Assembly: GCA_963575745.1 (NCBI GenBank)
Contig: CAUYUJ010000103.1
Span: 1-64,000 of the forward strand
Source of the DNA: Prorocentrum cordatum
Taxonomy: Eukaryota
DNA: 64,000 bases
Reading direction: 5' to 3'
Part shown: one piece after another, positions 11,865-46,692 of the stretch
How positions within the stretch are numbered: position 1 is the first letter of the stretch
Layout: each line of letters starts with the position of its first letter
The notes under the pieces: generated by a model
Told to the model about the DNA's origin: nothing
Database searches by the model: none
The model's input: only the letters and a program-made list of their open reading frames with translations
Translations under genes and position numbers: made by a program

Positions 11865-12100
11865 CAGGAGTCGCCCCCGTTGTGGCCCCATGTGCATGCC
11901 CTTCGTGGCCCCGCTGTCGCTCACTGTCCTAAGGCGGCCCAGTTGCTACCCTCAGTGGCCCCATCGCTGCCTTCTGTGGCCCCGCATTATCTGCCCTTCG
12001 TGGCCCCCGCTCGTTCGCGCTCTTCGTGGCCCCATACGCATTCCCTTCGTGTCCCCGCTGTCGCCCTTCATGGCCTACCTCGTGTCCTTCGTGGCCCTGC
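11865..12100 (+). repeat. Degenerate tandem CTTCGTGGCCCC-type repeats
   Basis: About 9 copies of a gtggcccc-like core at ~20-30-bp spacing. Confidence 0.75.
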
Positions 12101-12309
12101 GGTCGTTCTCTCTCGCTCTCGCTTTCGCTCGTCGTCGCCGTCGTCGTCGCCGTCGTCGTCGACGTCGTCGTCGTCGTCGTGGTCGGTCCCCTGTCCGTCC
12201 CTCTTGGGGTCGGGTCGACGGTCCGCGGCCGCCCCGCCGATCAGCGCTGCCGCTGGCCAGGCCGACGGTCCGCGGCCGCCCCGCCGCTTGCCGGGGCCCG
12301 GCCTGCAGG

Positions 12310-12675
12310 GAAGAAAGGTATACCACCCAAAAGAGGTTCGATCGAAGACGAACAGGGCGGTCATCGAGGGTTTGGGAAATACGCGTTATTGGACTTTCGA
12401 GCAGATAAGGGCGAACAGTCTTAACATGATTGTTGTTGTTGTTGTTGCGGTGGTTATTGCTGTTGTTGGTGTTGTTGTTGTTGCTGTTGCTGCTGTTGTT
12501 GATGTTGCGATTGTTGTTGCTGTTGTTGTAGTTGTTACCGTTGTTGATGTTGCTGTTGTTGGGGATGATGATTGTGCTGGTGATGGTGATGATGATGCTG
12601 TTGTTGATGATGCTGATGTTGTTGTTGTTGTTGAACATTATTAATTCTAAAGAATAATTATTGTTGGGCCCCCTG
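12310..12675 (+). repeat. Head + (GTT)n + tail element, copy 2
   Basis: Head ggtataccacccaaaagaggttcgatcgaagacgaacagggcgg, then (GTT/GAT)n, then agaataattattgttg. Confidence 0.75.
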
Positions 12676-17539: not shown

Positions 17540-18140
17540 TCAACATTGACGACAGCTTCACAGATTGAGGGCGGGTGGTTTTCAACATGTGGCTTTCGCC
17601 TTAACACCGCGCGCGTTCGTTTTCAACGCGTGTAAGAGTTTCACGGATTGAATGCGGGTGGTTTTCAAAATGTGGTTTTTGCTTTAGCGCCGCGCACATT
17701 CGTTGTCAACATTTGCAAGAGTTTCACGAATTGAGGGCGGTTTCTTTTCAAAATCTGGTTCTCGCCGTAGCGCGGCGCACATTCATGTCCAACATTTGCA
17801 ACAGCTTCACGGGTAGAGGGCGGGTCGTGTTTAACATTTGATGCTCGCCGTAGCGCAGCGCACATTCGTTTTTCAACATTTGCAAAAGTTTCACGGGTAG
17901 AGGGCGGGACGTTTTCAGCATGTGGCTCTCCCCTCAGCGCCGCGGTTAAATTTGCGCAAGAGCTTCACGGATTGTGGGCGGGACGTTTTCAACATGCGGT
18001 TCTCTCCTCAGCGCCGCGCGCATTCGTTGTAACATTGCGAAAAGGGCTTCAAGAATTGAGGGTGGTTCTTTGCAGCAGGTGGGTCTGGCTTTAGCGCCGC
18101 GCGCAGTTTTGGTAAACATTTGCAAGAGTTTCACGGGGTC
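17540..18140 (+). repeat. ~83-bp satellite, about 7 degenerate units (related units at ~13800-13990)
   Basis: Consensus caacatttgcaagagtttcacgg..gagggcgg...tggct.tcgcc.tagcgccgcgcacattcgtt recurs near 17541, 17624, 17707, 17790, 17874, 17948, 18030 and 18115. Confidence 0.9.
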
Positions 18141-20321: not shown

Positions 20322-23300
20322 TGGCTGCACATGCTCTTGCTTGCTTAACCCGCGCTGTGTGGGCGTGCAACCCCGCCGTCGCCGATGGGGATGGCAATGG
20401 GCTCGGCGGCTTCAGGGTGTCCCTCACGACGGCTGATTGCAACAGAATCGTAGCGGAAACCGTGATCGGTTTGAGCGGGGATGCGGTGGATGACGCCCTA
20501 CTTCACGACATAAGAAGGGACTGTCACAACCACGTCCACGAGGTGGGAGGGGGAGAGGGTTGAGGGGAGGCGGGGAGGAGGAGGGGAAGGAGGAAAAGGA
20601 GGGGAAGGGAGGAGGAGGAAAAGCAGGAGGGAGAGGGAAGGGAGTTGGGGGGGAAAGGGGGAAGGAGGGAGGAGGACGAGGGGGAGGAGGAAGAGGAGGA
20701 GGAAAAGGGGGAGGAGGAGGAAGAGGAGGAGGAAGACGTCTCTTCCTCCTCCGCCACAGAGCGGGCCCTGGGCAGGCACTTCGTCACAAAGCTGTTCCTC
20801 ACACAATCTTGGACGTGCGCGATGTTTTGGCGAATATGGGGAGTTGTGACATTCCCGAGGCACGGTCGGCTTTCCAAAGCGAGTGGGGCCACGAGGTTCC
20901 TTCGGATCCCGGGCCAGGGGGGTCCTTCGGGTCCCAGGGGTCCAGTGGATTCCAGAAGTCCCTGGGTAATCATCACCGACCCCGCTTACTTTCTCCAAAG
21001 GCATCGTGTCGGGCACTCGACGTCGCCGTGTCTCGTCGGGCGGCGGCGGCTGCTGCTCCTGTGGCTGCCGCCGCAGGCGCACGTCCTCCTTCTACTCCTC
21101 CTCCTCCTTCTCATCGTCCTTATCCTTCTCGTTTGCTCCATTATTCGCCCCTCCCCCTCATCCTTAAACCTCCGCCCCCCTTCGGTGCCCGACTGAGACC
21201 CGCCGCCCCATCTGGCAGAGGGGCCAGGGGCCGAGGGCGCGCTGGCGCGCGAGGGAGAGGCCGTCGAGCTCACGGCGGCGACGGAGGATCCGACGGCGGC
21301 GACGAACCTGACGAGGATGGTGCTGACCCCTGGGAGATCATTCGGCAGTTGAAACTTAAGGTTCATCGCTTGCAAATGGATGTCAGATATTGGCGGCTGA
21401 AGGCCGAGGGTTTGTCTGATAAGCTTCAGGATGCCAAGGATGACCACAATTCATACCGAGACAGGACTTCCTTGGAGTGTCATCTCGGCGGCGGTCCGAC
21501 GGGGGTCGGGGGTCGGAGAATGGGGGGGGGGGGGACTTTCAGAAACCAGGGCTTCCAAGAAGCCCCCGATAGTTTTAACGCAACGCCCGCGGGATTACAA
21601 GTATTCACCCTGGCTTTCAGGACCCCGGGGCCCCTTCTGGGCGCCGCCGATGCATCCAAAGAAAATGCGGCGAGACGGGCGAGTGCCTTCATTAAGTGTT
21701 TCTGGCGGGTACACTTTAGCAATGCGGCGTAATCAGTCTCACACTGGGTGCGATGCCATTTTGCTTCAACAAGAAAAAAAGGGGAGCCGACAGAATGCAT
21801 CGCGGTGGGAACGACTGATGTCAGCCAATATCGTTCTGCAGTCTAGAGATTACTACTTTGAGAATTACGAATACATCATGAACTTAGCCCATCGTCAGAT
21901 ACCCTCTTCTGGCATGTCTTACGAAATACATTGCATCCGCGGCGACGGGACCAACACCACCGTGGCTGGGAACAAGGCGCCTCTCTGCCATCCTCCAACA
22001 AACCTTATCATCCCACCGACCCCCCCTGGGGTGAAGTGGGATCCCGCCCAGCGTTCGCGCGATCCTGGATCCCTTATTTGTTGGGGTGGAGGGAAGGATG
22101 GGAGGGAGGGAAGGGAGGGGGGGAGGAGGAAGAGGAGGAGGAGGAGGAGGTGGTGGTGGAGGGAGAGAGGGGGGGGGGCTGGAAAAATTCAGTCGGACGG
22201 TCAATCGCCCCCTCGATTTATGCCCCACCCAGAGTGTTTTGGATTGCCGCGGGACTTTGGGTTCCTTATCCGATGGTGTACTTCGCTGACAATTGCTAGT
22301 CGTTTCAATTTTACCTATTGCCCTCAGGCCCATACGTGTGAGGTACGGAGCTGGTTCCGCCACGCTTCCATTACAGATGATGGGCGCCCTGATTATCTTC
22401 CTGCGCCGCCCAGCCGCCTGCGCGTGTGTCATGCGGATTTGGCAAAAATCCACGAGAGTTACGGGGGTGAGGAGGCGAGGGCTACATATATCAAGCAACT
22501 ATTGGGCCTTGGCATTTTCCCTTGGACATCGGAAGCTGTGTATTTCGATCAGCCAAACATGGAGACCACGAGCGACAAGCTGCCTCCCTACATGCACGTG
22601 CGGTGGTTCATTATGTGTGCAGACCAGGGCCCGGACCAGTTGGGTTGCGACAAATTAGCGTCGGGAGATGTCAGCGACATGCTGTGCACAGTGAAACTCA
22701 GAAGTTGGTGTTTGCGGCACATTGCGAATCTGATTAGAAAAACACAGCTGACGAGACTGGACAGATACAAATATTTCGGGACTTGTGCAAAAATCGCAAA
22801 CCTCTGGAGATCTTCTGGACATCCCGCCAAGATATATAACGCATATAAAGATATTACCAGCAAGGCTCGGGCGGATGAGGTGGCGAAAGTCCTTCCCCAG
22901 CGGGCTCTGCGGAACAGATGGGGATCAATCGCGAAACTTGAAGAGAAAATACTCAAGTGCGGCCGAGACGAGCTCCCTGCCGTGATTCGTCACGCCCTGG
23001 TTCCCAAAGCTAAACGTGTTGCCAGGGGCCGCAAACGCAACCTGGTCGATGACGAAGACAATGACGAGTTCGCTTATTCGGAAAAAATTTCCAGATGGGT
23101 TAAGGAAGTCGACCAGGGCTTGCACACGAATGATTTTTGGGCTTGCTTGTATATCGCAAATAAATGTTCTGGGCCGCTGGTGCATTTGGAGCGTTTTCTC
23201 GAAGGCGCCTGGAGGGGTCGGGCGCCTTGCCAAAGCTTCGGGTCGGCGAAGAACTGAGTGGGTTTTGAATCCCTGACTCCACCGAGAGGGGGAGTGGTTG

Positions 23301-26300
23301 GACTTGCAGGTGGAAGGCTGCTGAGGAGGAGGGGGTGGAGTTGGGCGCAGGAGGAGGGAGAAGGAGCGAGGAGGGGGATTTGTTCGGAGAGGATCACCGA
23401 AACTCGTTCCCTGCCCCCCCTGGCGGCGGAATGCGCAACAGCGCTCCATACGGCTCAATGGAGCTTGTTCGTCGCCAGCTTCTTCGCCGACGCGACGGCT
23501 GTGCCTGGCGCGCGCTCCGTCCATTCCCTATCCCTATCCCAGGCAGCAGCCGCGCACAGCAGCATCGGCACGGCGTTTGGAAGGATGATGACCCCATGCC
23601 AATGTTAGAGCTTGTATCGCATAAAGCACAACTCTTTTATGACGAATTCCATTATCTTCTAGTCCGTGATCCCTGGGATGATTTGATGAATGGTGGGGTG
23701 ATGGTTTCTCTTGAGCCTGGTGAGCCGTTCGAGACGTTCGTGGAACTAGCTGCCTGCTGCGTCTTAGAGATGTGGGCAGACTTCTATTGTCGAGTATACG
23801 AGCCATGCCAGAGGTATCCCAGGAGAATGATGCTTCTCGTGAAGGAAAGCCCATTGGTTGAGGATGTCACGCGCAAGCAAGTAGCGAGAGAGATGGTTGG
23901 CCCTGGGAGATCTAGGAGTCTCGACCCTGCTTCGGAGAAGGTTTCAATCTTATTCAAATCGCAATTGGAACGAGCACGGGATACGGGCGTTTTGGATCAA
24001 GGATTATGGGACTGTCTTCGGGAAGTCGCACACATGTGGCTGGTTGACACGCAAGACATCGAAGGATGTAACTCCATTCTGCGGCGCGGTGAGGGGGTCC
24101 GGGAACGCATGGAGGGGGGCCAGTGGTTGGGGCGGGGGCTTCTTCGGCTTGTTGCTTGTTGGGGGCGTTCCGATGGCTTCTTAAAGAAACCTGAGCATCA
24201 AAGAAGCGACCTGCAATATTACCGACCCCCCTCAGCCCCTATTCTCCCTCCCACCCCCAACCCCCTCGCAGCGCCGCAGACTCTTAATAAAGAGCGTGTC
24301 CAAACTGGCGCCGAATATTGGCTGGCCGCTCCTGTCCTCGCGAATCACAATCAAACGGCGGGGACTTCAGAATCTGAATCGAGATGACCGGGACGATCTT
24401 GTGAGCGCATGTGTGCATTATCATAAGGCTGCAAATGATATGATCAATGCCGAGAACGATGCCGATAGCAACGAATACAACAGATGGGCTTTTGCCAGCG
24501 TGGATGAGGTGCCCCCGCCCAAGGTCCCCCCCGAGAACCCACCGCTTCCTGCGTGTGCTTGCTCTGCCCGTGTCCTTGCAACTTTGAATAGGATCATCCA
24601 TCAGACGTTGTCACCGGCAGATGACGAAGATGATGGTGAGCCTGGAACTCGTCGCCCCAGGAAAAATTTCAACACTGAGATGGGGAAGGTTGTTCTTTGC
24701 ATCGAGTCCTGCAATGCAGCTGCGAGATATTTCGTGCCGTGTAGATATTATCGCAAGGTTCAATGGTTTTCCGAAGCCCGCTTTGTTGATTCTGTTGATG
24801 AGAGTTGCTTATTGGGGGAGATCGATCTCGACGCTGGGCGCCCCTTCCAGCCTCGGAAGGCCTTGGGCGTCATTACTGCAGCCCATTCCTCTGCCGTCAA
24901 CGAAGGGCCCGCAGGTGACTTCCAGTGCAGTCTCTGGTCATTATCTTGGGATCGCAGAAGTATTCGCTATGCTAGACTGGTCGGTGCTGTGGCTGAGCCT
25001 ATCAATATGATTGATTTGTGTTCGTGTCATGGCCGCCGGCGGCGCGGCGGAGGCGGCGGCGGCGGCAAGGGCGGCGGCGGCGGCACGGGTGGCGGCGGCT
25101 CCAGAAGAGGAGGCGGTGGAGAAGGAGACCCTGAACCACGCGAGGAGGCAGAGGGGGAGGCCGAGGAGGCAGAGGAGGAAGAAGAGGAGGAAGACCCTGA
25201 AGCCGCCGCCATCATGCGCGCATGGGGGGCCGCTGAAGCAGACTCGGACTGCCTCGAGTCAGATGATGGAGGTGACGAAGGCGATGACGACGGCTGTGGA
25301 TGGGGATCGCGACGAGGATATGTCCAGGGCTTTCGCTTGGGGGTCTGGAGACGGGCTGCGCTCGATTGAGGATATCATTAATGGCGCCATTGATGATGAG
25401 GAGGCAGTGACCGCCATGCTCAGTGCAAAGCTTGTGAGTGAACTTGGCGACGCTGGAGAGGCTGCTGATGACGGCTGCACTTCAGAGGCGCCACGGGCGG
25501 CTTCGTGGAGGGGGGCGGAGGGAGGAGGAGGAGGAGGGGGAGGGGGATGAGGAGGAGGAGGAGGAGGAGGAGGAGGAAGAGGAGGAGGAGGGGGAGGTGG
25601 AGAAGGAGGAGGAGGAGGTCTTAGAGTCCGGGGCCTTCCCAGAAACCGTCGGCAGGCCCCGAGAGAGAGAGAGAGAGAGAGAGAGCACCAATATAGATGG
25701 CCTGTTATGGGGCCCGAGCACATCCCAGGAGAAGGGCCCGGGGCCCACGCAAGGTCCAAAACGCACTTCCGCGCGTCAGGCTGAAGGAGGCGGCGTCGGC
25801 CGAGGTGGCAGAGGCCGTGGCCGAGGGGGCGGCCGAGGGCGCCATGCTGTGGCCGCTGGAGGCCCCCCGGAGCCACCGCCCGCGGGCCCTGGCGGCTCGC
25901 CCGACGGAGGCGACGAGGATGTTCGTCACGATCAGGCCCCTCTCTCCTCATCCTCTCATCCTCTCCTTCCTATTCCCTCGCCTTCCCGACCTTCCTTCGC
26001 CCCTCGCTCCAGGACTGGATCCGAGGGATTGAAAGCTTGATCTTGGCCCTGGCGTGGTTTGATAACGCGGACGTTCAGACCGCTTGCGACCACTACATAT
26101 CGTTAGCAGTCGAGCGTCTTGAGGACGACGGCTGCGTGAGCCACATTCCTCGGTGGATATATAACGACAGCGTGGACATGCAGCAAGGTCGTTTTGTGCA
26201 CGTGAGTGGCGGTGACCACAAGATGTCGGCGGCGCCCCGTTGGCGGGAAAGGGGGCAATTGCAGCAGCCCCCATCGGGGCGCTCCTGAGAAGTATCCGTC

Positions 26301-26819
26301 CAATCACTGCCCCCCTCCCCACCCGCATGCCACCGCAGCCCCCCCCCCATCTTCGGCGCGCCGCCGAATATTGGCTACGCGCGCCCGCCGCCCCCAGATA
26401 GGCTTTGGGAGCTCTCGCTTGCTGCTGATATTGAGTCGGGAAAGCTGCAGGTTGTAATCCCGAACTCAGGTGAAAAGATGTACAGGCCTTTCCACCTTCG
26501 AGGGAATATGACTTTGAACGCAGTTCGCTTCTCTCGCACAATCGGTTGTGGCAATGATCCGTCAATCCCGTGCTGCGCTTGCGGCGTTGCTGATGCCGAG
26601 TGCTGCCCTTTGTGTTTGAGGCATTTGCACGCTTGGTGCCAGCACGACGACCCTTTGCGAGTGCTGTTGGTGAGCATCGATGTCCTGAAAGAGGCTGTCG
26701 GTGATAACCTTGCGCAGTTTCACTCACATTCGGAATTGATTGCAAAGCTCGTGGAGTGGTCTGGTGCGGCCAGGTCTCTGTGCTCACTATGTAACGAAGC
26801 AATGAAGACTGAATTCTGA
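20321..26819 (+). CDS. Multi-exon hAT-superfamily-like DDE transposase with an acidic linker and C-terminal Cys-rich (zinc-finger-like) domain. One apparent frameshift near 25290
   Basis: Motifs in hAT order: EIHCIRGDGTN (D1, 21944), IMCADQGPD (D2, ~22622), WCLRH (CxxH, 22709), RWGS (22916), DTQDIEGCNS (E, 24061). C-terminus CCACG...CPLC..H.H..C...CSLC. Approximate exons: 20321-20543, 20760-20859, 21001-21076, 21219-21464, ~21630-21976, 22328-23204, 23543-24083, 24295-25487, 25780-25935, 26014-26201, 26452-26819. Donors are mostly GC/GA. Confidence 0.8.
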
Positions 26820-27426
26820 AGTCGTCGAAAACTTGGGAGTGATCGGAGGCTCGGAACGCCGTCCGAGATTTTCTTATTCTCTTCTTCCATCAAGTCTTGA
26901 CTTCACATCCCTTCCCATCGTGCCGCCCATCTCGGCCCCACCCTCCTGGTCATGCAGCTCGCCCTCCTATCTTGCCTCCCCTGCGTCCCCCCTCCTCGCC
27001 CCGCCATCTCGATTGCTTCCCTGGCTGCCCCTCCCCTCCCCCGCGCCGCGCCGCCTGACACCGCGGCCGCCGTGACCAACAGAGGCTTCCAAGTGGTCGT
27101 CCCGCCTGCCGGGGGCGAGGGGGGGGCACGGGGGGAAGGGAGGTTGAGGGACGAGGAGCGACTTACCCCCTCAAGCTGAATAGCCTAGAAAGCCAAAGCA
27201 GCAGCCCTCGACCGACGACGAACGAAAAGAGAGCGGCGCAACGCAAAGCAAGCAGGACGGATGGTTAAGTTAAGAGGTTGTGGGAGGAGGAAGAGGGGGA
27301 GAGTGGTGCGTTGTTCAATTCTACGAAGCTTGATCATGTATCATGGAACCCAAGTCATTTAGTGGCTCTCTGTCCCTCTGTTTAGCTCGACCACCCTCGG
27401 AAGCCCCAGTGCTCTCATCGGCCGCC

Positions 27427-27813
27427 ATGGCCGAGGTCGATCCCGCGCCTCAGCGCCTTCGCTCTCGCTCGCCGCATCCATATAGATTCAGAAACATCGG
27501 CGGTCAGCTCGTCCGCTACATCGACGACTTGGATCTGGATGACATGCCTGACATGCCTTCGGTTGCACTGTGGTCACGCAATCTGGCAAATTTCCCAGAC
27601 GCACGCTTCGTGGATATCACGCACCGCTTGCGCTCATACAGAAACGTGATGTTCTGCATCAAGTGTGGTGCGTGGAGTCCCGAACCTGGTAGGCTGGAAC
27701 ATCTGCTGGTGACTCCTTGCCGCGGGGACCCAACTGATCACGGCGCTTGGGTGCTTCGCGCGCTCCGTAGGGGGCAGTATCCGCGGAGGGGTAATCGCGG
27801 ATCTTTTCGCTAG
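27427..27813 (+). CDS. Small intronless protein (128 aa) with an H...CxxCGxW...C zinc-knuckle like the C-terminus of LINE ORF2
   Basis: GCCGCCATGG start context and uninterrupted frame. The motif THRLRSYRNVMFCIKCGAWS...LLVTPCRG parallels HRC...FLCIRCGCWA in the LINE at ~52040-52100. AATAAA lies at ~27826. Confidence 0.6.
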   Translation: MAEVDPAPQRLRSRSPHPYRFRNIGGQLVRYIDDLDLDDMPDMPSVALWSRNLANFPDARFVDITHRLRSYRNVMFCIKCGAWSPEPGRLEHLLVTPCRGDPTDHGAWVLRALRRGQYPRRGNRGSFR

Positions 27814-28819: not shown

Positions 28820-29830
28820 ATCATGCGTGTGGAGGGAGTCCCAACGCACATATGTGTGTGGAGCGGGTCCACGCACTACCATGTGTGTGGAGGGGGTCCC
28901 AACGCAGCCATGTGTGTGGAGGGGGTCCCCACGCGCTCTATGTGTGTGGAGGGGGTCACCACAACCCTATGTGTGTGGAGGGTCTCCCAACGCTCTCATA
29001 TGTGTGGAGGGGGTCCCCGCAGCCTCACGTGTGTGGAGGGGGTCCACACACTCCACATGTGTGTGGAAGGGGGTCCACACGCACACTATGTGTGTGGAGG
29101 GGGTCCCCACACCCTCATGTGTGTGGAGGGGGTCCCCACGCATACTATGTGTGTGGAGGGGATCCCCACACCCCCATGTGTGTGGAGGGGATCCCCACAC
29201 TCTGCATGTGTGTGGAGGGGGTCCCCACACTCCCCATGTGTGTGGAGGGGGTCCCCACAACCCTCTGTGTGTGGAGGGGGTCCCCACGCCCTCATGTGTG
29301 TGGAGGGGGTCCCCACTCACCCCATGTGTGTGGAGGGGGTCCCCACACACTCATGTGTGTGGAGAGGGTCCCCACACCCTCATGTGTGTGGAGGGGGTCC
29401 CCACTCACCCCATGTGTGTGGAGGGGATCCCCACGCCCTCATGTGTGTGGAGGGTGTCCCCACTCACCCCACGTGTGTGGAGGGGGTCCCCACGTCCTCA
29501 TGTGTGTGGAGGGGATCCCCACACCCTCATCTGCATGGAGTGGGTCCCCACATCCTCATATGTGTGGAGGGGGTCCCCATGTCCTCATGTGTATGGAGGG
29601 GGTCTATGCACTCCCCATGCGTGTGGAGGGGATCCACACACCCCGGCGCACGTGGAAGGGGTCTCCACACACCACCACGTGTGTGGAGGGGGTCCCAACA
29701 TCACTCATGTGTGTAGAGGGATTGCTCATGTGTGTGGAGGGTGTCCCAACGCTATCATATGTGTGGAGGTGGTCCCAACGCTCTCGGGCGCGTGGAGGGG
29801 GTCCACGCGATCACATGCGCGTGGGCATGA
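28820..29830. repeat. 29-30-bp minisatellite, ~33 copies, core atgtgtgtggagggggtcccca with dyad symmetry
   Basis: Seen directly. TGTGTGG...CCACACA arms occur within many units, with a variable 7-9-nt segment between cores and decay at both array ends. Confidence 0.97.
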
Positions 29831-30041
29831 TCCCGACATCATCCACTGTGTCTCACATGTATTGGAATAGATCCCTTCACAAACGGTATGCTGAGGAACG
29901 TCACACACTCCTCATCTGTTGGTGCTGTGTAGAGAATGGTTTTTGTCAGTAGTCATTTGTCCACAGCCATTTCAGCATAATGCTTAGCAGGTACAACAGT
30001 ATATCACCAACGCCTGCTGATTGAGTTGCGCATCATTCACG

Positions 30042-31721
30042 ATGAGCCTATCTCGGCCGCTGTGCTTCAAGCCTGGTGTTGATAACGTTGCTGATCTGGA
30101 TAGTGCATTCAGATGGTTCCAACAGGGTGTCGCTAAAATCAACGCAGATAGGTATGACATTGCACGCTTGCTGTCTGGACGCAGGCTTGATACCTCTGGA
30201 GCGTTCTTCGGCGTAGGAGCAGCAGAAATTGGTGACCGAATCATTGAATCATGTAGCCGCAACTTCTGTGAGAACACCTCTGGTTTCTCGACGCCACCAG
30301 TGCGCTTCGTTTCTAAATGGGCCATTGAGAAGAGTAGCACGTGCAGGGCAGAGATCATGCATGGCAGCCTTGCTGAACACATATTCGGTGACATTACAGA
30401 CTTCCTGCCAGCCGTGTGGAAGAGCCGATGTGGGCTGCATTCAGCAGCTGACAAGTGGTCACCTGCGCAACTGAGAGCTGAGCTACCATGCGCGAAGCTG
30501 CTGCTTCGGGCCAAGTGCTTCAAATGCAATGGAAGCTATTGCGCGCTCTCGCGCACGCATATTCACCGGGCTGGATCTCCCTGCGTCCTTCACAGCAGGT
30601 TTGGTAACCAACTCAGAGAATTTGGGAACAGTCATTTCTTATTCTACACATGGGTTGCACTTACGAGACAGCTACTTCATACGGTTGTTCTTCACGAGAA
30701 CGTGCCCGAGTTCGGAGACGAAGAACTCACCACCTTGTTCGGAGACTTATATTACGTCTTCAGAATTGAATTGACACCTGCGCAATTCGGCTGGCCAAGC
30801 CAGCGGTCTAGGCAATTCGTCATTATGATCCTGAAAGATTACATTGGTGCTGGCGCGGTGGTTCCTGAACGTGCTTCTGAGGAGATGAATGACGTCCTCG
30901 ACATGGAGCATACCTTGAAGGGCATGTTTTTTCGTTCGCGTTCGCCGCTGTTCACGTGGTCGAACTACCTGATAGCCACGGACGAAGAGGTCGAGCGCGA
31001 GACGAGATGGGCCAAGAATCGTGAGTCTGTCTTGTCACGCTGGACACCAGAGGACGGAGTGTTTCCTAAGAGCCCCGTGGACAAGGATTTCCCATCCGAT
31101 GTTTACGGCGTCGGCCTCGGGTGCCCCAGCAAAGAAGAGAGGACAGTTTATGAGTCATACCGAAAGAAGTGGCCTCGCAGCGCTTGCAACGTGAGTCAGA
31201 ACCCCATGGCAATGGGTGGAAGTAAATCATTGGCTGACGGGTCGCTGCAGACCTTGTGCAAAAGCGGCGGACTTGTCGTACTCCCAGCCCCGCCCTACAA
31301 TCCTCTTGGAAACACTAGCCCCAGGTGGATGCTTCCAGAGGAGTTATTTACTAGCATGGGGTTCCCAATCTCTTTCGAGGCGCAGCGTGCTTGCTGCGGT
31401 GCAGTTTGTTCTTTCTCTCGCGGGCAGCAAGCTCCCTCTGTCCGAAGCCCTGCATGCCAACGCTCGCAGGTGGGAAATAGCATCCACGTCAACATGATTG
31501 GCGCAATTTCAACAGTAATTGTTCTGAGAATGCAGAATCTAGGTGAGCGTCTGCAAGCGCCAGCAGCTCAGACTGGTGTCTCGTCCACCCCGGACTCCGC
31601 TCCTCCCTCCTCTGCAGCGGCAGACAGGTTTCGGCGTATTTTGACTCGAGTAAATTCGGGGTCGACGTCCCCTTCGACGGGGCCCCAGAAGAGGCGCCGC
31701 GTGCGTGGGAAGACGCACTAG
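30042..31721 (+). CDS. Intronless DNA (cytosine-5)-methyltransferase, ~559 aa
   Basis: C5-MTase motifs in canonical order: I-like SGAFFGVG (~30195-30218), II AIEK, III IFGDI, IV AGSPC (Cys at 30582), VI HENV (30693), VIII FGWPSQRSR (~30790-30812), IX RWMLPEELFTSMGFP, X QVGNSI (31473). No stops. Confidence 0.9.
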   Translation: MSLSRPLCFKPGVDNVADLDSAFRWFQQGVAKINADRYDIARLLSGRRLDTSGAFFGVGAAEIGDRIIESCSRNFCENTSGFSTPPVRFVSKWAIEKSSTCRAEIMHGSLAEHIFGDITDFLPAVWKSRCGLHSAADKWSPAQLRAELPCAKLLLRAKCFKCNGSYCALSRTHIHRAGSPCVLHSRFGNQLREFGNSHFLFYTWVALTRQLLHTVVLHENVPEFGDEELTTLFGDLYYVFRIELTPAQFGWPSQRSRQFVIMILKDYIGAGAVVPERASEEMNDVLDMEHTLKGMFFRSRSPLFTWSNYLIATDEEVERETRWAKNRESVLSRWTPEDGVFPKSPVDKDFPSDVYGVGLGCPSKEERTVYESYRKKWPRSACNVSQNPMAMGGSKSLADGSLQTLCKSGGLVVLPAPPYNPLGNTSPRWMLPEELFTSMGFPISFEAQRACCGAVCSFSRGQQAPSVRSPACQRSQVGNSIHVNMIGAISTVIVLRMQNLGERLQAPAAQTGVSSTPDSAPPSSAAADRFRRILTRVNSGSTSPSTGPQKRRRVRGKTH

Positions 31722-32352: not shown

Positions 32353-35300
32353 ATGGCTGCAGCGAAAGCTCCGGAGTGGATGGGCGACACCTTCGTGCCT
32401 GCAGTTGATGGCAATCCGTACGAGGATCGTAACTATGCTTCGCTCGAGGAGATGCCTGGGGCTGGAGCTCTCCTCCTCCTCCTCCTCCTCCTCCTCCTCC
32501 TCCTCCTCCTCTCCTCCTCCTCCTCCTCTCCTCCTCCTCCTCCTCCTCGTCCCCCCCCTCCTCCTCCTCTCCTCCTCTCCTCCTACTCTCCTCCTCCCCC
32601 CTCTCCTCCTGACCCCCTGCGCCGTTTCGGGTGGCCAGGGTGCTCTCGCAGGTTCTGTTTGGGCGCTCTCTGTGCCTAGGGGGCCTCTGTGGCAAGAATC
32701 CTACGAACGCCGCGCCCCTATCAACTTTAGGAAACAATCGAAAGACCGTCGCCTCTGAAGTTTGATAGCCCAGGGGCTCATCCTGGCTTTTTCAAAACCC
32801 TCATGGGCACCAAGAAGAGCTCAAGAGGGGGCCCACGAGCCCTCCTGGGTCCAAAGAAGACCCCAAGAAGAGCCCAAGAGGGGATCGGACAGGGTCCCAC
32901 GAGAGGCACCGAAAGGGCCCCCCTGCTGTCAAGATGGCGGCCCTCGTCCTTTACGGAAGGCCCTAGAAACATCCCTCAGGCATTCTCGTAGGCGTCCATC
33001 TCCCTCCTGTCTTCACTCTGCGTGCCCAGAGGAGCGGTGGTTCCCCTTGACCGGGCGCGTCCTGCAGAACAAGGCTCGCGCCTGCTACGTGGTGAAGGAC
33101 AGCGTTGAACCTAACGCGGGGTTGGAGAGGAGAGGAGGCGGCGCGGTCGGAGCAAGAACGGCCGGGAGGCAAATGAGGATTGAGGGCGGAGGCTCGTGAA
33201 AAGGACGGGAGAAGGAGGAGGACTTTCGTTTTCGGCCTTTCTTGGTCCTCCTGGGGGTTCCTCCTTGTCACCGCTGGATTCGCTTCGAAATTCTAGTCAG
33301 AACGCGCGCCAAGAGAGGTCCGGGGACAACGCGGACTCGGATGAGGATTGCCTAACCAGGGCCCTCGTCTTCGACGACGTCGAGGGCGACAGTGACGATG
33401 TCGAACGGCGACGAATGTCTTGGCCAGGAGCACGAGAAACTCCCATTCTTCGATCCCGACGGCGGGGAGATGTGGGAGCGCCACCCGCTCAACGACCGTG
33501 ACCAGAGTCACACCAGGGAGGAGTACGTCGCCAAGCTCGTTGACAAGGGCTGGATTATCGGCGCGAGGGGCGAAGTCACCTTCATTGAGGGCACGGATTG
33601 CTGGGATGCAAATTCACCCCCCAATGCCGACCTCGCCGTCTATCTCCCCATACTTCCTCCCCACCCTCTCCTCGCCTCCTCACTTCCTCGCCCCTATGCC
33701 ATACCTCATCCCTCCCACTCGCCCTCTTTTCCTTCCTGGGCCCTCACGCCCCGAGGAGGACCAAGAGTTTTTTTCTGGTTCGGTTCGCCCGCGTCGGGGT
33801 CCGCGGTCCGCTCCAAGTATGTTCCGCTTCGGGCCGACGATGAGCATACTGTTCAACAGACGCCAGTGCCGACCTTCCCCCATCCAGAATGATGCCCGCC
33901 CCTCATTCGTTGCTAAATGTGTCTTTTGTGTGTGGTGGGGGGGTCCGTTTCCAGGAGTACAAGACGAAGAGCGGAGTCGTCTGCAACAAGAAGCTTATTC
34001 TCGGCGGCGCCCACCTGATAGAGGCGTTCTACATCGCTCTGAAACAGCATCCGAATGCTCCGCAGTTGCACGCGAGCCTTGTCGAAGGCGTGCCTGACTG
34101 CACGCGCGTCGATGCCCGAACCCCTTCGGACGGCCTCAAGTACTTCGTCGACATCAGCAACGAGCTCAACGGTTTCGCGTCGAGGACTTCCTTCTTGCAG
34201 ATGTATCGGCGCGTTGAGGACATTGGGAAAGGCTACACCAACCACCTGAAGCGCGAGACGCAGCAGCAGCAGCAACACCAGCAGCAACGCAAATTGGCCG
34301 CCGCCGCCGCCACTTTCGAGGGGGCGCTTGCGGGCGGTGAGGGCGGCGAACCAGATGCCGCGGATCAGAAGCCAGCGGGCGCGGACAGCAGCAAACGCAA
34401 AGCCGATGACGCCGCTGACAATGCTGGCGGCGAGCAGCCTGCTTCCAAGAAACTTCGGAGTCAGGCTGGCTACGAGACCGAATACCTTAACTGGATGAAG
34501 AAGGCCTTTCCAAACACCTTCACGCACATGACTGTGTTTAAGGCGGCTCGCGCGTTCAAGGCGAAGATGGTTGAACTCAAGCAGTGGGAGCCGTTCGCGG
34601 ACTACATGGAGGCCCACGTCAAGTTCACTGAGACCTTCGATCAAGGAAACGTTATCCATTGTCAGGCGGCCGTTTTGAACGCGTTCGCAGCAGAAGCAGA
34701 AAGGCCTGACATCATGACAGAGTTCTTGGTGCCTGCATTGCGTCTTTGCGCGCCGACCAACGACGGAGTGCCCCAGGTGTGCTTCTCTGTGCGGAACACG
34801 GCTGTCAAGCTGTTCTCAGGCTTCGTTGACGTCAGGATGTCGAAGTGCGCCGAGGCAGTGGCCAAGGCTAAGGCAAGTGGAAAGACAAAGAAGGGAGCCG
34901 CCAAAGCGAAGGCCATGGGCAAGGTTGGGGACAAGGCTGTGGCCGCTATGCCGCTGCCGCCCGCTGCCAGCAAGACAACTTTCTGGGGCGACGCCCTCAA
35001 CGTGATCGCGATGGTCACCAAGGACGCAAAGAGTGTTCTCGCTGAGGTCACCTGCTGCTGCTGCTGCTGATTCAAGGCTGTCCGCCCAACCTCCCCCTTG
35101 TCCTCTTCTCTCCTCCTCCTCCCCCTCCTTCTCCCTTTAGTCCTCCTCCTCCTCCTCCACCTCCTCTCCTCCGTCTGCTCCTCCTCCTCTCCCCCTCCCT
35201 CCTCCTCCCTCCTCCTCCCATTGGGAAACGCCGAAAAAGATTATGTGACGAACCCATCGATCTTCAAGTATTCCAAACAAGTGCGGTACGAAACCTCGTT

Positions 35301-38300
35301 TTTCTAGCCGCCTTGAGCGACCCCGGGCGGTAGGCGGAGGAGGAGGCGGAGGAGAAGGAGGAGGAGAAGGAGGAGGAGGTGGAGGAGGGAGAGGTTGGAA
35401 TGCGTGGGGAGAGAAGGAGAGGAGAGGAGGAGTAGGAGTTTTTTTTATCCATCTGCGCGTCCCTCAGGTCGTGGAGGACGCGAAGTGCTACGTGATCATG
35501 CAGATCGTGCAACACGAATGCACGCTCCCGATTCGCAATGAAGGCGACGTGCAGGTCTGCTCGCGGGAAGGGGCCGTGCCAGCCCGATTTGGCGTTCCAG
35601 CGTTCCCTTGCCATGAGAAAAAACAGAAGGGCGGCGAGAAGGCCCCAGGAGGGCCTGGGCCCTCAAGGAACCACCCTTGGGCGTTCTTGAGGCTCCTTTG
35701 GAGCCCATCGCCGCAATTCCACGATTGTCCTCAGGCCGTCACGGGTCGTCATATCACCGCCTTGGGGGCCCAGGGAGGCCCGAGCCGCCATTGCGATCCC
35801 AGGCTGCTGCCAGGGAGCGTCGCGGCGGACGTTGCTTTCTGTCTTAGGTTGTCGGGCCCTAGCCTCTTCGAGCATCCTCTGGTACCTCCTGGTACATCCT
35901 CTTGGTACATCCTTCGCGGCCTTTGGAGCCTTGCAGCTTTGGGCGCTCGTGCGGGCCCGAAAAGGACCGAAGGGCGGCCCGAGAGATGGCCTGGATTCAA
36001 GGACCTTCTTGCCCCCCCAAGACGATCCTGCGGCGGCCTCAGGCCCTCGGCGTTCGTCTTCTGTGGCCCATCACCTAGGTCAAAGGCTGGACCAAGTTCA
36101 GGAAGGCCCTCGCGCGGTTCGTCATTGCCCAGCACGAATACAACGACGGCGTCAACTTGCATTTCGAGAAATTCAAGGATACGGGGTCGGCTGGCGAGCA
36201 GGGCATTGATGATGCGTCTTCTACTATTGCGGTCATGGGCCCTGTCCCTGAGGCCTTCCACGAGGGGATGGTGGTAACTTTGCGCGACTACTTGGAGAAG
36301 GATCCCGTCGATATTTCGACGTGGGACGAGGCTGGGGACTTATCCAAAGTGCTGGGGAAGGACTCTTCCATCGCCGTCGCCCGCGTCGTGTCGGCGAGCA
36401 AGGGCGCATGGGCCAGCAAGTCTCACATTTGGTCGCCAGCGATGGCAGAGGCATTGGAACCTGCAGCCGATGTCGACGCCTGCGTCAGTGAAGTGTTGAA
36501 CCAAGTCTGGCTTGCCGTAGAGGGACTGCAGCCATCGGCGGTGTGTAAGGTACTGAGCAAGTTTGTGGAATTGCCGAAAGCTGACAACTTCGAGGATCTA
36601 TCTGCCTTGGCCGACGTCCATCCAGTGTTTTGCCAGCCCCTGAAGTATTTCAAGAGTTGCGCCGACGCCGTCGTCTACTTGAACTTTCGGTCACGTTTCG
36701 TGATGTCACTGATCGACGAATCGTGCAGTGCGATGCAGGACATGATCCAGAAGAAGCAGGGCAAGCCCTCTGCGTTGGAGAACACTGTGGCGTATTTGAA
36801 GAAAGGCCTCTCTTTCGTCCGTGCAAACACAGAGAAAGTTGCGGTATCTGATTTTCGGTTGGCAGACGACTCCAGTTGGAAAAGCTTGTGGGCGAGGCTG
36901 ATGAAAAAGGCCAACGAGGAGGCTCCGAAGGAGGAGTTCGCTGCACAGAGGGAGAAGCCGTCTCAGCATTGCGGCGTGGACTTGGAATCAATGACGGCTA
37001 AAGATCTGAAGGGGTTGGCCTCCCATTTCAGCATAGCCTTCGAGAGTAGCATCAAGAAGGCGGAGCTGGTCAAGCTCATTTCTGACAAGAAGGCGACGAT
37101 TGCAGCTGCAGATGAATCGTTGCAGCAGTCTGGGCCAAACGTTGACGACTGGTGGGAGCGCCTTGCTGGTGAGTTTACTTCGGGCGTGGACGTCATCGAG
37201 AGGGCACTGGCAGAGGAAGATGAGAAGCTGACCATTGGCGAATACTATTTTCCCTCTGCGGCTCCGTCTGCGAGCGGTCTGAAGGCTCTTGGTACTGTGG
37301 CGTTCGCAATGAACGCGACCCTGAGCATGATCGACGACATCAAGGCCCACAGGGAGACCAACGTCGAGTGGATGTCTTTCAAGGCCGACGCGAACAACAA
37401 CGGACAGGTTGCAAGGCCTGTGAAGTTTCTTGGGCCATCGAAGGCCGAACTCGAAGCAGATCCGACTATCTTGGCTAAGCTCCCGTCATGCCGTCTGTTG
37501 ATGCGTGGCCGCGTCACCGCCATCCCTGCTGGAACTTCTGCGGGGCTTAGTAAGTTCTACGTCGGGAAGGCGCTCGGCGGCTACAACTTGGTCGTGACGC
37601 CGCTGAGCCCGAATCAAGACATTGGTTGGTCCATGAAGGTGGTGACGGGCGAGGACTGCTTGCCCACGATGGTCGTCGACGACGAGAGCAGCTACGATAT
37701 CGTGACAAAGGGCCCCGACGGCACGGACTGCGCTATCAAGGTCATCACGTTGATGCCGAACCCCGAGTGGATCGCCTCCCTGGCCAACCGCGTGCGCAAC
37801 GATGAGTCCGCGGACAGCGCCCGGGACGTCATGAGTAGGCGCGCCTTTCCTGAGGAGCAGGATGCGATGGACAAGGTTGCCAAGGCGCCACGGTGGAGGT
37901 GGAGGGGGGGAAGAGGAGGGGGAGGAGGAGGAGGAGGAGGAGGAGGAGGAGGATGAGAAAGAGGAGGAGGAGGAGAAAGAGGATGAGGAGGGGAGGAGGA
38001 GGGGGGGGAGGAGGGGGGGGGACAAGGAGGAGGAGGAGGAGGAGGAGGAGGGTAGGAGGAGGAACCTGGCGTCTGGGCACTCCGCCGAACGCTTGAGAGC
38101 GAGGCTCTGATGATGATGTGGAGGAGGAGGAGAAAGAAGAGGAGGAGGAGGAGGAGGAGGAGAGGACGAGGAGGAGGAGGAGGAGGAGGAGGAGGAGGAG
38201 AGGAGGAGGAGAGGAGGAGGCGAAGGAGGGGGAGGAGGAGGAGGACGGGAGGCGGGCCCCCCCTCCTGGCGGCCTCAGGCGCTGGCCGACAAGAAGGCCG

Positions 38301-38550
38301 CCAGGGAGATGAAGAAGAAGATCCTCGGTCCTGCCGACGAGACTGAGGACTCGCGGTTGGTGGGGAGAAGAGGAGGAGAGGAGGAGCAGGAGGAGGAGGA
38401 GGTGGTGAGAGGAGGAGGAGGAGGAGGAGTCCCGAGGAGGAGGAGGAGGAGGAGGAGGAGGACGAGGAGGAGGAGGACGAGGAGGGAGCAGGAGGAGGAG
38501 GAGGAGAGGAGGAGGAGGATGGAGGAGTCTGAAGATGCGGAGGTGGAGGA

Positions 38551-38581
<31 letters not shown>

Positions 38582-38719
38582 GAGGAGGAGGAGAAGGAGC
38601 AGCAACAGCAGCAGCAGCAGCAGTCCCCCTTGCCCCGAGAGGAATGGGAGCCATCCAAGATCGACAACGAGTCGAAGATGGCCCTTGCGGCAGGGCACCT
38701 TCTGGAGAAGAAGGGTTGA
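32353..38719 (+). CDS. Multi-exon protein (~1,150 aa) with a ParB/Srx-like N-terminal domain and an HeH/Rho-N-like motif. Function unknown
   Basis: Approximate exons: 32353-32448, 33032-33097, 33429-33589, 33955-35046, 35468-35554, 36079-37885, 38279-38347, ~38640-38719. Two long clean coding exons. YVAKLVDKGWIIGARGEVTFIE...LILGGAHLIEAF resembles the ParB 'G..P..V...i.dG.hR..A' pattern. DLESMTAKDLKGLASHFSI.....KKAELVKLI (~36979-37080) matches HeH/Rho-N. Confidence 0.7.
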
Positions 38720-40377: not shown

Positions 40378-43300
40378 ACCATTTGGGCTCTGTGCCCCCC
40401 AGTGGGGCGAGGGGCGGGCGCATCCATCTGGCCCCAGCCAGCTGCCCGAGATCCGGCGCTGGTGCACACGACGCCATTCCTGGATAGCGGCCCAGGAACC
40501 GCTCCCGTGCCTGACATCGGCGGCCTCGCCGCGCGAAGGCCGCAGGGCGTCGCCAGCTCAGGCTCGACGCGACGCGGCGGTTGCTGCGGAGGCACCACGG
40601 CGAGCGCATGGCGAGCAAGAGCACCGTAGGCGTTGGTGATGCAGGCGGTGGCGAGGCGACGCTCCGTGACGCCAGCAGGGGCCACCAGCGGCGTCATGGG
40701 CTTGCTCGGCCACCAAGGCTTGCAGTTCCAGGAGCAGCTTTGCAACGAGGACGACCTGCTTGAAGTGCGGCCGCAGCAAGGACGGCAGACGCCCGAGCAG
40801 CAGGACCCCATCGCGCGGCACTCGTGATCGTGGCAATCGTCCCGAGCGGGATGGCGCAGCAAACAAAGAGCCAGCAACCGCCCCACCTTCGGAAGTTGTG
40901 CGATGCATGGGGGGCGGTGCAGTCTGTGCGGCGGCTTCGCTACGACGACGGGCGCGAGCCCTTACGCATGGCCGTGGAGGAACTAGGACGAGCCGAGATA
41001 CAATAACACGTGAGTCCATGGCCCCAGAGCGCGTGTTGCGCTGGCGCCAAGAGCGCAGCGCACGAGAAACTGGTCCAGCATATCGGTGGCGTCGAACAGC
41101 AGCTGGTGGAGGTCAAGTCCAAACAGGAAGGCGTCGCCAAGGAGATCGCGATGCTCGAATGGGATGTGGCCCGTGCAGAGGCCGCCATGGCCAGGCAGCT
41201 CCCCAAGTCGACAACATTCAGTCCGTGGCCGCCGCGGTGCAGAGGGTTCCAAAATAACGCCCCCGCAGCGCAGCAGTCTGTGCATTGTGGCCAGTCGCGT
41301 GGCTTCGCCGGCGGACAGCCCAGCATCCAGAAGCTGGGCCCCATCCTGGGGGAGGCAACGGCAGGCGCTAAAGTCCTCGTCGAAGGCGACGATATTCGCC
41401 CCTCACTGCCAGCATTCGCCCCGGCAGTTCCACAGCAGTCATGGGCTCCTGCAGCAAGCGGAGACGCGGCAAACGGAGACGCAGTCGCATCAGTCACGGG
41501 CGCGGCCACCAGTGGACCCCCAGCCGCCATGGAAACATACCCCCCCCCCCCGCGGCATGGGAGCATTTCTAGTCGACGACGCGCTCCCAGGAGCGCACGC
41601 AGGCACAACTGTGGCTTGGTTACTTTCGATGGGTCATGCTGGAGCACGCTGCAGCAAGTTTTGCTCGAAGGTGTAGGGGATGCTCAGATTTTGTATTCAC
41701 GAGAGTTGAAGCTGGACGGCGAGGCGCTCGATCGAGCACAGAAGTTGGCTTTGCGACATGGGTGGCAGCCGTTCGTATCCGCATGTAAGAGGTTGCAATC
41801 CAATTTGCCGCCGTCTGGGGTCGCGGTCTTGGTGGAGGCTCACAGTTCCGTCACCATGCTCACGGGCTGCGAATGTGATGAAGAGTTTCGATATCCCCCC
41901 AGCGTGGTCGATGGCCGTGCATGAGCACGCGGGGCTCTGTGCATGAAGTCGGTCGGCTTGGCGGATTACCTGTGCGTCAACTACGGTCGGTTCACGAGGA
42001 TGGCCACCTGTTTGTGTCACTTCGCGGCGCCTTTGATTTTCGGTGGCGACTGGAACGCGAGCGCAGCGGACGTCGACGCCATTGGCGTCGTGGATGCCGT
42101 GCGATCTACTCATTCCCCAACGTTGTGATGGGACGCGCAGGAGTGCCAAGGGCCGCTGCAGCGTGCTCGACTAGTGGATGGCGTCGGCGGACTTGGCGCA
42201 GGCTTGCGAGAGGCCTCGAGCGCAGGAGAACTGGGCGACTAGACCCCGTGGCCCCGTTCGTCTCGATTCCTCGGCGCAGTCGCGACGCCGCGAACTGCTC
42301 GCGCGGGTGGCGCCGACTGCTTTTCCGCGAATCTCCCCTGCCGTGGCAGGTGCCGCCCGCTCCGGGGCCCACCTGCAGATCGAGGGTATCTCGACAGAGT
42401 GCCGGACTCGGCGCGGCCCGCCCGAATGCAGCGTGGAGGCGCAAGCAAGGATCGACATCTTGCGCGGGGGCATGTCGTTGCATTCCGCGGGGCAGGGCCT
42501 CTACCGCATGTGATCGGGTCGAAGATCCTGGGCGCTTCTGCGGGCGCGGCCAGGGCCCGCGCGACGCATGGCGGCCGATCGGGGGCCCCGCCCGAGGCGG
42601 CCGTCCTGCTGCAGGAGCAGAGCCAGGGTGCTTGATAACTGCGGCCGCGGCGTCCAAAAATGTTCTCACTTCCGATCCTCAGCGCCTCCAGCCTCGGACG
42701 CGATGGGAGAGACTGGGGCGTGCACTTCGGCCGGGCCATCTGCGGGGCGTTTGCGCTGATGATGGCGAGATCCTCATCGGCCGGGCGCGGGTCGCATTTC
42801 GCCAGGCCTTGCGTGGCGAGGCGATCGCGGGCGCCATCGTGAAGGCGCGCGCGGGCGCCTTCGATCAGCGCGCTGCCTGCCTCGGGGGCATCGCCGCCAG
42901 GCAGCGCGCCCAGGCTTTCCAGGGGGAGGGGGGGGGGGGGGGGGCGGGGGCGCCCCGGTCATGGGGGCCCTTGCCACTTTTTGCCATGGCGAAGCCAAAG
43001 GGTTGGGCGCGCCGGAGGTCGACAGGTTCGGCGTCCCGTCTTCGCTCCTACAGGCGGCGCTGCCAGATGAACTACTGGGGCGACATCTGCGATGGCGCGT
43101 CTACAAGCTCGAAGGCCACGCAGGAGGAGGTCTTCGGCGAGATTGGCCAGGATGCCGCGGGCCAGGATCCCGTCGCAGGGCGCGCCTCGAACCCCGCGGC
43201 GGGCGCGCCGCCGCGGCCGCTGCTGGGGCGTTCGGCGGCTCGAGAGGGCGCGGCTCAGCATTGTCGAGACGCGGGCCGATTCTTTGCCGTCTTTCACCTG

Positions 43301-46300: not shown

Positions 46301-46460
46301 GATGCGACCCTGGCCTGCTGGTCGACAGCGATCAATTGCATGTCGGTGGTCCACCCTGTAGGCGCGAAGGGTGGATCCGCCATTCCTGCCCCCCGAATGC
46401 TCGAGGTCACTGGCGAGGCCGTGCGATGGCTGGGTTTCATTTGAATTCTGTACTTTCTGT
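40378..46460 (+). mobile_element. Decayed LINE: ORF1 (coiled-coil), APE endonuclease, RT, RNase H, Cys-rich C-terminus
   Basis: APE: LVTFDGSCW...RELKL (~41615-41715), FGGDWN (~42040). RT: DISACFGRV (~43787), SDD (~44060). RNase H: FADGSG (~45182), RAELHA, INADC, NERA. Many stops and frameshifts. SL-like accatttgggctc at the 5' end. Confidence 0.85.
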
Positions 46461-46692
46461 ATGAGCCTGTTCGGCCTTAGGGCGTCCTTGTTCGGGGCTG
46501 CGCCGAGCCCCGACGACTGCGTCGGCGACGTCGCGCCCCCCTGGAGTGGCAGCGCTAATTGTTTATCTTTGCGAGGCCTTGGCGTTGTCCTTGTTCTGTG
46601 ATCGATTTTGCTGCGATGCGCGTCCGATCGCCCCGTTTAATGCCCGGGCCCGAACTCGGCGCGTCTTCCCGCGTGCTCGCCCCCCCCTTCCC

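Follow-up and report, generated by a model that had tools for sequence, protein, structure and literature searches.

The sequence analysed here, which we call the window, is a 64,000-nucleotide stretch of DNA from Prorocentrum cordatum (contig CAUYUJ010000103.1 of assembly GCA_963575745.1, positions 1 to 64,000). On its forward strand, an open reading frame (ORF) at 30042..31721 encodes a 559-residue C5-cytosine methyltransferase, P0001, in a single exon. The frame opens with an ATG at 30042, closes with a TAG at 31719-31721, and is preceded by an in-frame TGA just 5′ of the start codon (30018-30020). The assignment was made from the ORF call, Pfam, an AlphaFold2 model and fold comparison. PF00145 (DNA_methylase) matches residues 177-492 with an E-value of 2.9e-9 and 37.3 bits, against a gathering score of 22, and is the sole Pfam match of the protein, which ends at residue 559. 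A phage DNA methyltransferase profile, phrog_116, also matches (E = 1.7e-12). The bacterial Dcm model TIGR00675 gave 13.7 bits against a cut-off of 100.65, and a PDB search with the P0001 sequence alone returned no match at E≤1, solved structures being reached only by a profile of the family. As judged from these profile scores, P0001 is a divergent member of the C5-methyltransferase superfamily.

Because the ORF is collinear with full-length homologues, no intron is required in the gene; residues 27-514 of P0001, for example, are collinear with residues 2-485 of P0007. The original prediction had described an intronless gene flanked by two large neighbours with many introns. The first half of that description stands, as one ORF collinear with its homologues, while the introns of the neighbours had been inferred solely from coding-looking ORFs broken across frames and do not stand as an observation.

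Relatives of P0001 were collected by an exhaustive HMMER search of 1.84 billion cluster representatives (clusters at 50% identity), which returned 1144 matches at E≤1e-3, 398 at E≤1e-10 and 62 at E≤1e-30; a word-indexed homologue search found four relatives only. Many of the relatives are full-length proteins of 500-650 residues that are 30-43% identical to P0001 and collinear with the whole ORF, and 39 family members were aligned over their full length. A Pfam scan found no further domain in any of these 39. Database labels were looked up for 30 matches, 8 of which were named. Two fragments that are 99% identical to P0001, with one residue difference each (P0006 and P0009), have as their only organism label EukProt EP00959 Pyramimonas sp. 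CCMP1952, a prasinophyte green alga and not a dinoflagellate, and the same Pyramimonas sp. CCMP1952 label is carried by P0012 (67% identity) and P0055 (50%). A further member, P0018, is labelled Karenia brevis, and the family thus reaches dinoflagellates; the remaining three, from JGI, are named site-specific DNA-cytosine methylase. No relative was found in prokaryotes among 60 pattern matches in 185,579 species genomes, in a scan that detects close relatives only. P0001 and its relatives make up a large family, as yet without a name, that occurs in protists of the sea and of fresh water. A keyword search of the open-access subset of the literature found no report of the knuckle insert described below, of the pairing with gene X, or of a DNA methyltransferase (DNMT) in an algal DNA transposon, and 12 of the 23 supplementary files of PMC9998398 and one supplementary file of PMC12344493 held no Pyramimonas or Karenia entry.

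Motifs I (FxGxG), IV (PC), VI (ENV), VIII (RxR) and X (GN) are all found in P0001 and in the right order. They were placed by string match and assessed by residue counts over the query and the 152 matches listed (153 sequences), with denominators that vary by position. Motif I, the S-adenosylmethionine (SAM) binding motif, reads FFGVG (30204..30218). Motif IV is GSPC (30573..30584) with the catalytic Cys181, which is kept in 122 of 125 sequences, and its preceding residue, P180, is proline in 101 of 125. Motif VI, ENV (30696..30704), is equally well kept (E219 in 132/135, N220 in 132/136, V in 128/135), as are the two arginines of motif VIII, QRSR (30801..30812; R255 in 129/132 and R257 in 125/128). 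The motif IX region, RWMLPEELFTSMGFP (31323..31367), retains R428 in 74/87, E434 in 76/87, G440 in 80/89 and P442 in 74/87, and motif X, QVGNS (31467..31481), retains G478 in 81/85 and N479 in 75/84. Across the 39 full-length members, C159, C181, E219, R255, R257, E366 and G478 are invariant. The near-invariance of the catalytic residues points to family-wide constraint on these positions of P0001. Every motif string quoted in the original prediction, including GSPC, ENV and QRxR, was located at the position that the prediction implied.

Two further elements of that prediction proved to be properties of the family. The Cys-rich insert between motifs III and IV is present (30516..30566, CFKCNGSYCALSRTHIH) as a Cys/His knuckle, C159-x2-C162-x4-C167-x7-H175, and it recurs family-wide: C159 is kept in 120 of 121 sequences, C167 in 112 of 121 and H175 in 116 of 125, and position 162 is His in 68 and Cys in 45 of 122. 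On these counts, C-x2-[C/H]-x4-C-x7-H is a hallmark of the family and not a local oddity. It resembles a zinc knuckle, and it is a putative zinc site. Likewise, the basic C-terminal tail QKRRRVRGK, which resembles a nuclear localization signal (NLS), is present at 31686..31712, and a basic cluster occurs within the last 25 residues of 27 of the 39 full-length members; from this we infer that the protein may be imported into the nucleus by way of its tail.

An AlphaFold2 model of P0001, built with the 39-sequence alignment, reached a mean predicted local distance difference test (pLDDT) of 87.7 and a predicted TM-score (pTM) of 0.88. The predicted fold is that of a class I methyltransferase with catalytic and target-recognition subdomains. 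This confident C5-methyltransferase fold, together with the PF00145 match above threshold, bears out the enzyme class originally proposed. When the family profile was compared with the PDB, the strongest match was to Cryptococcus neoformans DNMT5 (7r76, E = 3.7e-19; profile positions 41-143 and 184-438, covering the core and the target-recognition region). M.HhaI was matched over the core only (182-281, E = 4.9e-14), DNMT2 at about 1e-7 and DNMT1 at about 2e-4. In structural comparison with Foldseek, ranks 1-4 were all DNMT5 (E = 1.8e-16 to 6.1e-15, TMq 0.53-0.61), with M.HhaI at a TMq of about 0.4, and the VIA comparison also ranked DNMT5 first. C. neoformans DNMT5 (7r76, 7r77, 7r78 and 7t02) is therefore the best match among solved structures by both profile and structure.

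DNMT5 is the main CpG maintenance methyltransferase in many algae and fungi, and in the single species examined by structure it is inactive until the catalytic pocket has been remodelled by its SNF2 ATPase. P0001 shares with it the motif IV context C-x-D-[HY]-S and a target-recognition subdomain with an NVSQN flip-out loop. In P0001 this loop (residues 383-387; 31188..31202) was located by profile alignment to 7r76, in which N383-V-S-Q-N387 aligns with N665-V-S667-Q668-N669 of DNMT5 and the family consensus is D-L-x-Q-N. The DNMT5 numbering assumes an offset of +29, inferred by setting the catalytic Cys to C440. Among family sequences, Q386 is kept in 81 of 97, and of the 96 residues aligned at position 387, 43 are N, 20 are D and 11 are E. 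In C. neoformans DNMT5, S667 is assigned to recognition of 5-methylcytosine (5mC) and Q668 and N669 to the flip-out loop and base flipping, in the excerpted text of 10.1101/2021.10.01.462825. The same source describes S439 as replacing the Pro of the Pro-Cys dipeptide, and ATP-driven remodelling as required to open the catalytic pocket.

The differences from DNMT5 are as marked as the similarities. P0001 has no chromodomain, RING fingers or SNF2 ATPase, and no SNF2/helicase family was found by Pfam in the ORFs downstream of it. It has Pro-Cys (GSPC) in place of the Ser-Cys of DNMT5, and the Phe of motif I is retained. Its family also has an extra ~30-40 residues with the Cys/His knuckle before motif IV; in the profile alignment, about 40 positions of the family profile stand opposite only about 10 residues of DNMT5. 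Since the SNF2 module is absent, the ATP-gated activation of DNMT5 cannot apply to P0001. M.HhaI and the bacterial Dcm-type enzymes are set apart from P0001 by its much larger target-recognition region, its knuckle insert and its NLS-like tail.

Loss of the SNF2 domain from DNMT5 orthologues is described for dinoflagellates and other algae (PMC12344493, in part), and the SNF2-less algal enzymes resemble P0001 in having a DNMT5-related catalytic domain without the ATPase in marine protists. Dinoflagellate DNMT5c (Hoguin et al. 2023) is described in excerpts of PMC9998398 as lacking the ATPase, having an N-terminus of ~1000 residues and being dinoflagellate-specific. Compared with that description, P0001 has only ~50 residues before motif I, and its near-identical fragments bear a green-alga label. 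The DNMT5/6 paralogues of Symbiodinium are described as exon-rich and without companion domains (PMC5890265, in part), whereas the P0001 gene is a single exon; here too the comparison is with the published description. DNMT6 is presented in the same partial text of PMC9998398 as widespread and domain-poor, occurring in Chlorophyta, haptophytes, ochrophytes and dinoflagellates. Like it, P0001 is a stand-alone C5-methyltransferase without companion domains. The literature associates DNMT6 with RNA, whereas P0001 has a DNMT5-type CpG-reading loop, again as compared by description.

Taken together, these observations lead us to regard P0001 as probably the product of a functional single-exon nuclear gene, a stand-alone, ATPase-independent CpG methyltransferase of the DNMT5 type. 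The enzyme would enter the nucleus through its basic tail and bind SAM via FxGxG, E96 and D117. The cytosine of a CpG would be flipped out of the DNA, Cys181 would attack C6 with the assistance of E219 and R255/R257, and the methyl group would be transferred without the ATP-driven remodelling needed by DNMT5. We propose ATP-independent action because the canonical Pro-Cys, which is lost from DNMT5, is present in P0001. Zinc is the probable ligand of the knuckle, which may brace the catalytic loop or contact nucleic acid.

Several points weigh against this reading. The ratio of observed to expected (o/e) CpG is 0.91 for the ORF and 0.89 for the window as a whole, and as depletion is not marked, heavy germline CpG methylation is not evident from composition. 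The placement of the DNMT5 methyltransferase domain as the closest characterised relative is a judgement among solved structures only, and the VIA Z margin of DNMT5 over HhaI is only ~2.4. At E≤0.001, PF00145 is found in only 21 of the 39 full-length members, so that the family is divergent from the classical model. Few family members share the Phe that P0001 has at position 56, in motif I. Finally, the DNMTs that consistently lack companion domains, DNMT2 and DNMT6, are tied to RNA and not to DNA in the excerpted text of PMC12344493.

Downstream of the methyltransferase and on the same strand lies a second gene, gene X, with a first large coding block at 33844..35070 (+), identified by tblastn and BLASTP homology to L001, and a second at 36079..37956 (+), identified by PHROG profiles and a weak HeH/LEM match and containing a SAP/HeH-like motif at 36976-37083. 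L001 is a 13.4-kb portion of a metagenome contig that bears the family member P0013, a DNMT that is 32% identical to P0001 and likewise one continuous ORF. Downstream of that DNMT, on the same strand, a gene X region at 8309-12626 (+) is the counterpart of window positions 33844-37956, the conserved part being the N-terminal region, in which the matching ORFs are collinear. L001 positions 8309-9355 match window positions 34000-34257 (tblastn E = 5.6e-16; BLASTP 33% identity over 117 residues, E = 1e-19), and 9611-10309 match 34462-34884 (BLASTP 24% over 117 residues, E = 3e-6). A third collinear match is weak (tblastn E = 1.5e-4) and was not reproduced by BLASTP. In a quick IQ-TREE tree, whose deep branches are provisional, P0001 and P0013 span most of one of the two main family clades. 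Conservation of gene order at only 32% DNMT identity argues that the DNMT and gene X work, or move, as one unit. No Pfam family matches gene X, a length-limited search gave no word-based homologue of its exon 1, and the PDB held no meaningful sequence match. Residues 250-340 of its second block match five PHROG profiles (best E = 4.3e-6), and there are marginal matches to HeH/LEM (E = 0.14) and FluMu gp35 (E = 0.12).

Upstream of the methyltransferase, a multi-ORF gene at 21401..25369 (+) was recognised from its translations, from its neighbours in a language-model (Atlas) comparison and from hAT-like strings seen by eye. The strings are WCLRHIANL (22706-22732), RNRWGS (22910-22927) and DIEGCNSILRR (24055-24087), which resemble hAT blocks. 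Every Atlas neighbour of the upstream ORF with a Pfam assignment is hAT-type (DUF659, ZBED1 RNase-like, hAT-like RNase-H and FAM200/ZBED5), with scores of 0.80-0.86 that serve as a lead only. The gene gave no Pfam match even at E≤10, its ORF had no homologue in the length-limited word-based search and no PDB sequence match, and a single-sequence fold was unusable (pLDDT 37.3). The original prediction had placed the methyltransferase downstream of a DNA transposase without qualification. With the Atlas neighbours and the by-eye motifs in its favour, and with Pfam, word homologues, the PDB and the fold all silent, that identification is weakened to a plausible one.

Between the upstream gene and the methyltransferase lies a tandem array of a 29-bp unit with the core GGGGGTCCCC, about 33 copies at 28822..29804, which was found with TRF and ends ~240 bp 5′ of the ATG. 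The unit has 29 matches in the window, every one of them within 28822-29804; chance alone would give 0.01. The array is CpG-poor (o/e 0.27) and yields long spurious ORFs in three frames. Two Cys-rich ORFs, at 26289-26819 and 27334-27813 (+), are situated between the hAT-like gene and the array, and their sole family signal is a weak match to the Rad50 zinc hook (E = 0.076).

The arrangement invites comparison with the DNMTs of Symbiodinium that are intronless and reside in LINE and DIRS retrotransposons (SymbioLINE-Dnmt and SymbioDIRS-Dnmt3; de Mendoza et al. 2018, PMC5890265, in part). The likeness lies in an intact, intronless DNMT near genes resembling those of mobile elements in an alga, and in the idea of an element-borne methyltransferase. 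The Symbiodinium enzymes, however, accompany a reverse transcriptase and endonuclease or a tyrosine recombinase, whereas the neighbour here resembles a DNA transposase, and those elements belong to Symbiodiniaceae, which is not the organism label of the relatives of P0001. Among ORFs of at least 200 residues, Pfam found no reverse transcriptase, endonuclease or integrase family within 17 kb downstream and 12 kb upstream of P0001, and no RVT or Exo_endo_phos between 31.5 and 49 kb, so that the SymbioLINE arrangement, in which the DNMT ORF directly precedes an ORF with endonuclease and reverse transcriptase, is not seen. The P0001 gene fits none of the published descriptions of DNMT5c, DNMT6 or SymbioLINE/SymbioDIRS exactly.

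Elsewhere in the window, the nearest retroelement signal to P0001 is an 844-residue open frame at 57485-60019 (-) whose residues 615-762 match RNase_H in Pfam (E = 3.8e-6) and which is probably a retroelement pol. LINE-like strings were seen by eye at 45025-45660 (RNase H-like) and 47957-48970 (endonuclease-like), with no Pfam support. They fall in or beside a region, 42000-48000, in which G+C rises to 0.67-0.71 against a window mean of 0.596 and long ORFs have no Pfam match. Two 267-residue ORFs about 1.39 kb apart (14596-15399 and 15987-16790) contain a segment of 168 nucleotides that is 100% identical (14926-15093 and 16317-16484), pointing to a tandem duplication that arose here recently. 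Other repeats include a tandem repeat with an 83-bp period at 17540-18111 (~6-7 copies, 66-77% identity) and an array of an 11-12-bp unit (GGGTGGGTCGC) with more than 20 copies at 3110-3476. Low-complexity GGA/CCT trinucleotide tracts are very abundant on both strands along the whole window (for example 2235-2630, 15000-15110, 20560-20740, 25490-25630 and 37895-38600); they create many long overlapping ORFs and swamp repeat searches. When words sampled from the window were sought in sequencing runs, one DNA run contained 0.86 of them and three metagenome runs small shares of 0.14, 0.06 and 0.06.

Two alternatives to a functional CpG methyltransferase concern the activity of P0001 itself. The unusual motif I had been thought to affect SAM binding, perhaps, and if FFGVG abolished it, P0001 would be a catalytically dead relic or pseudo-enzyme. 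The rarity of Phe at position 56, noted above, is consistent with this, as the residue is mostly S (72) and then Y (9), with T, G and A also represented. The flanking positions behave differently, with F55 being F in 87 of 102 sequences and G57 being G in 100 of 102, and P0001 has both residues. The 67%-identical paralogue fragment P0012 carries the identical FFGVG, and the nearest relatives read F-Y-G. Because a paralogue shares FFGVG and the x position varies, the substitution is not expected to disable SAM binding, and the earlier concern is weakened. With a 559-codon frame that is open and all catalytic residues intact, a dead enzyme is the explanation to which we give the least credence. 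An RNA cytosine-5 methyltransferase, acting on tRNA or another RNA in the manner of DNMT2 or, as the literature proposes, DNMT6, deserves more weight, but still seems improbable. In its favour are the absence of any chromatin-reader or companion domain, as in DNMT2 and DNMT6 (PMC12344493, in part), the report of DNMT6 from Chlorophyta and dinoflagellates (PMC9998398, in part), which fits both organism labels of the relatives, and a window without strong CpG depletion. Against these stand a target-recognition loop that matches the CpG/5mC-reading loop of DNMT5, the retained canonical Pro-Cys and the conserved NLS-like tail.

The remaining alternatives concern how the gene came to lie where it does. 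If a large DNA transposon carried the methyltransferase and gene X as cargo and owed its mobility to the hAT-like transposase encoded upstream, the enzyme could methylate the element or host DNA. This would account for the same-strand order of hAT-like gene, DNMT and gene X, and for the persistence of the DNMT-gene X order on L001, a linkage that would be unusual for unrelated host genes. The existence of at least two divergent family fragments (67% and 50%) under the organism label of the 99% fragments, and a spread over 1144 clusters at 50% identity, as is typically shown by genes that are mobile or have expanded, point in the same direction, as does the uniformly hAT-type character of the family-bearing Atlas neighbours. 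G+C at third codon positions (GC3) is 0.577 in the DNMT and 0.581 in the upstream exon, as opposed to 0.73 in gene X, which is a weak hint of shared history between the methyltransferase and the upstream exon. The upstream neighbour, however, lacks hidden Markov model (HMM), sequence or fold support as a transposase, and a 1-kb tandem array separates it from the DNMT. No credible terminal inverted repeat or target-site duplication was found, the 25 longest of 1642 inverted pairs being low-complexity CCT/GGA tracts. L001 ends 1.8 kb upstream of its DNMT, so that a transposase there could not be seen, and most homologues are on contigs of 2-3 kb, where only the methyltransferase is seen. On this evidence we consider a cargo origin doubtful, though the most credible of the alternatives. 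Its boldest form, in which the hAT-like gene, the DNMT5-type methyltransferase and the SAP-motif gene X constitute a new large protist DNA transposon carrying an ATPase-independent CpG methyltransferase, with gene X as a chromatin-tethering partner, is unlikely; were it true, such a transposon would be the DNA-transposon counterpart of the retrotransposon-borne DNMTs of Symbiodinium. The cargo and RNA-methyltransferase alternatives concern origin or substrate and partly overlap with our preferred reading of P0001 as a stand-alone DNMT5-type enzyme. A recent retrogene, that is, a processed copy of an intron-containing host DNMT, is suggested by the contrast between its one exon and the neighbouring genes, where coding blocks lie in different frames, and the original prediction had called the gene retroposed or captured. 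Inspection of the sequence revealed no poly(A) tract after the stop codon, and the 21-nucleotide dinoflagellate spliced leader had no match at ≤3 mismatches; flanking duplications, another mark of processed retrogenes, were not searched for. No intron-containing parent is known. As P0013 on L001, with only 32% identity, is likewise encoded by an uninterrupted frame, the single-exon state predates the divergence of P0001 and P0013, and the gene order kept at such divergence likewise disfavours recent retroposition, leaving this origin very unlikely. The chance that P0001 is an “orphan” DNMT from a giant virus or another viral integration appears slimmer still. Orphan eukaryotic DNMTs without companion domains are described as lineage-specific, widespread and in some cases viral in origin (PMC12344493, in part), and the gene is intronless with a G+C of 0.54, below the window mean. 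Yet 2.9 million viral contigs gave 46 pattern-matched stretches, none of which encodes a relative in a scan that detects close relatives only; the best BFVD structure (E = 1.8e-12, TMq 0.42) is a weaker match than DNMT5; and the neighbouring genes consist of several coding blocks each, with no viral hallmark family among them.

If P0001 is, as we think probable, a stand-alone methyltransferase of the DNMT5 type, a family that keeps the CpG-reading loop, restores Pro-Cys, drops the ATPase and adds a knuckle would represent a natural experiment on a motorless DNMT5-type enzyme. The pairing with gene X and the link to a DNA transposase, if true, would bear on the spread of methylation systems between eukaryotes. 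Members of the family may also underlie methylation systems that have so far gone unexplained in prasinophytes and dinoflagellates.

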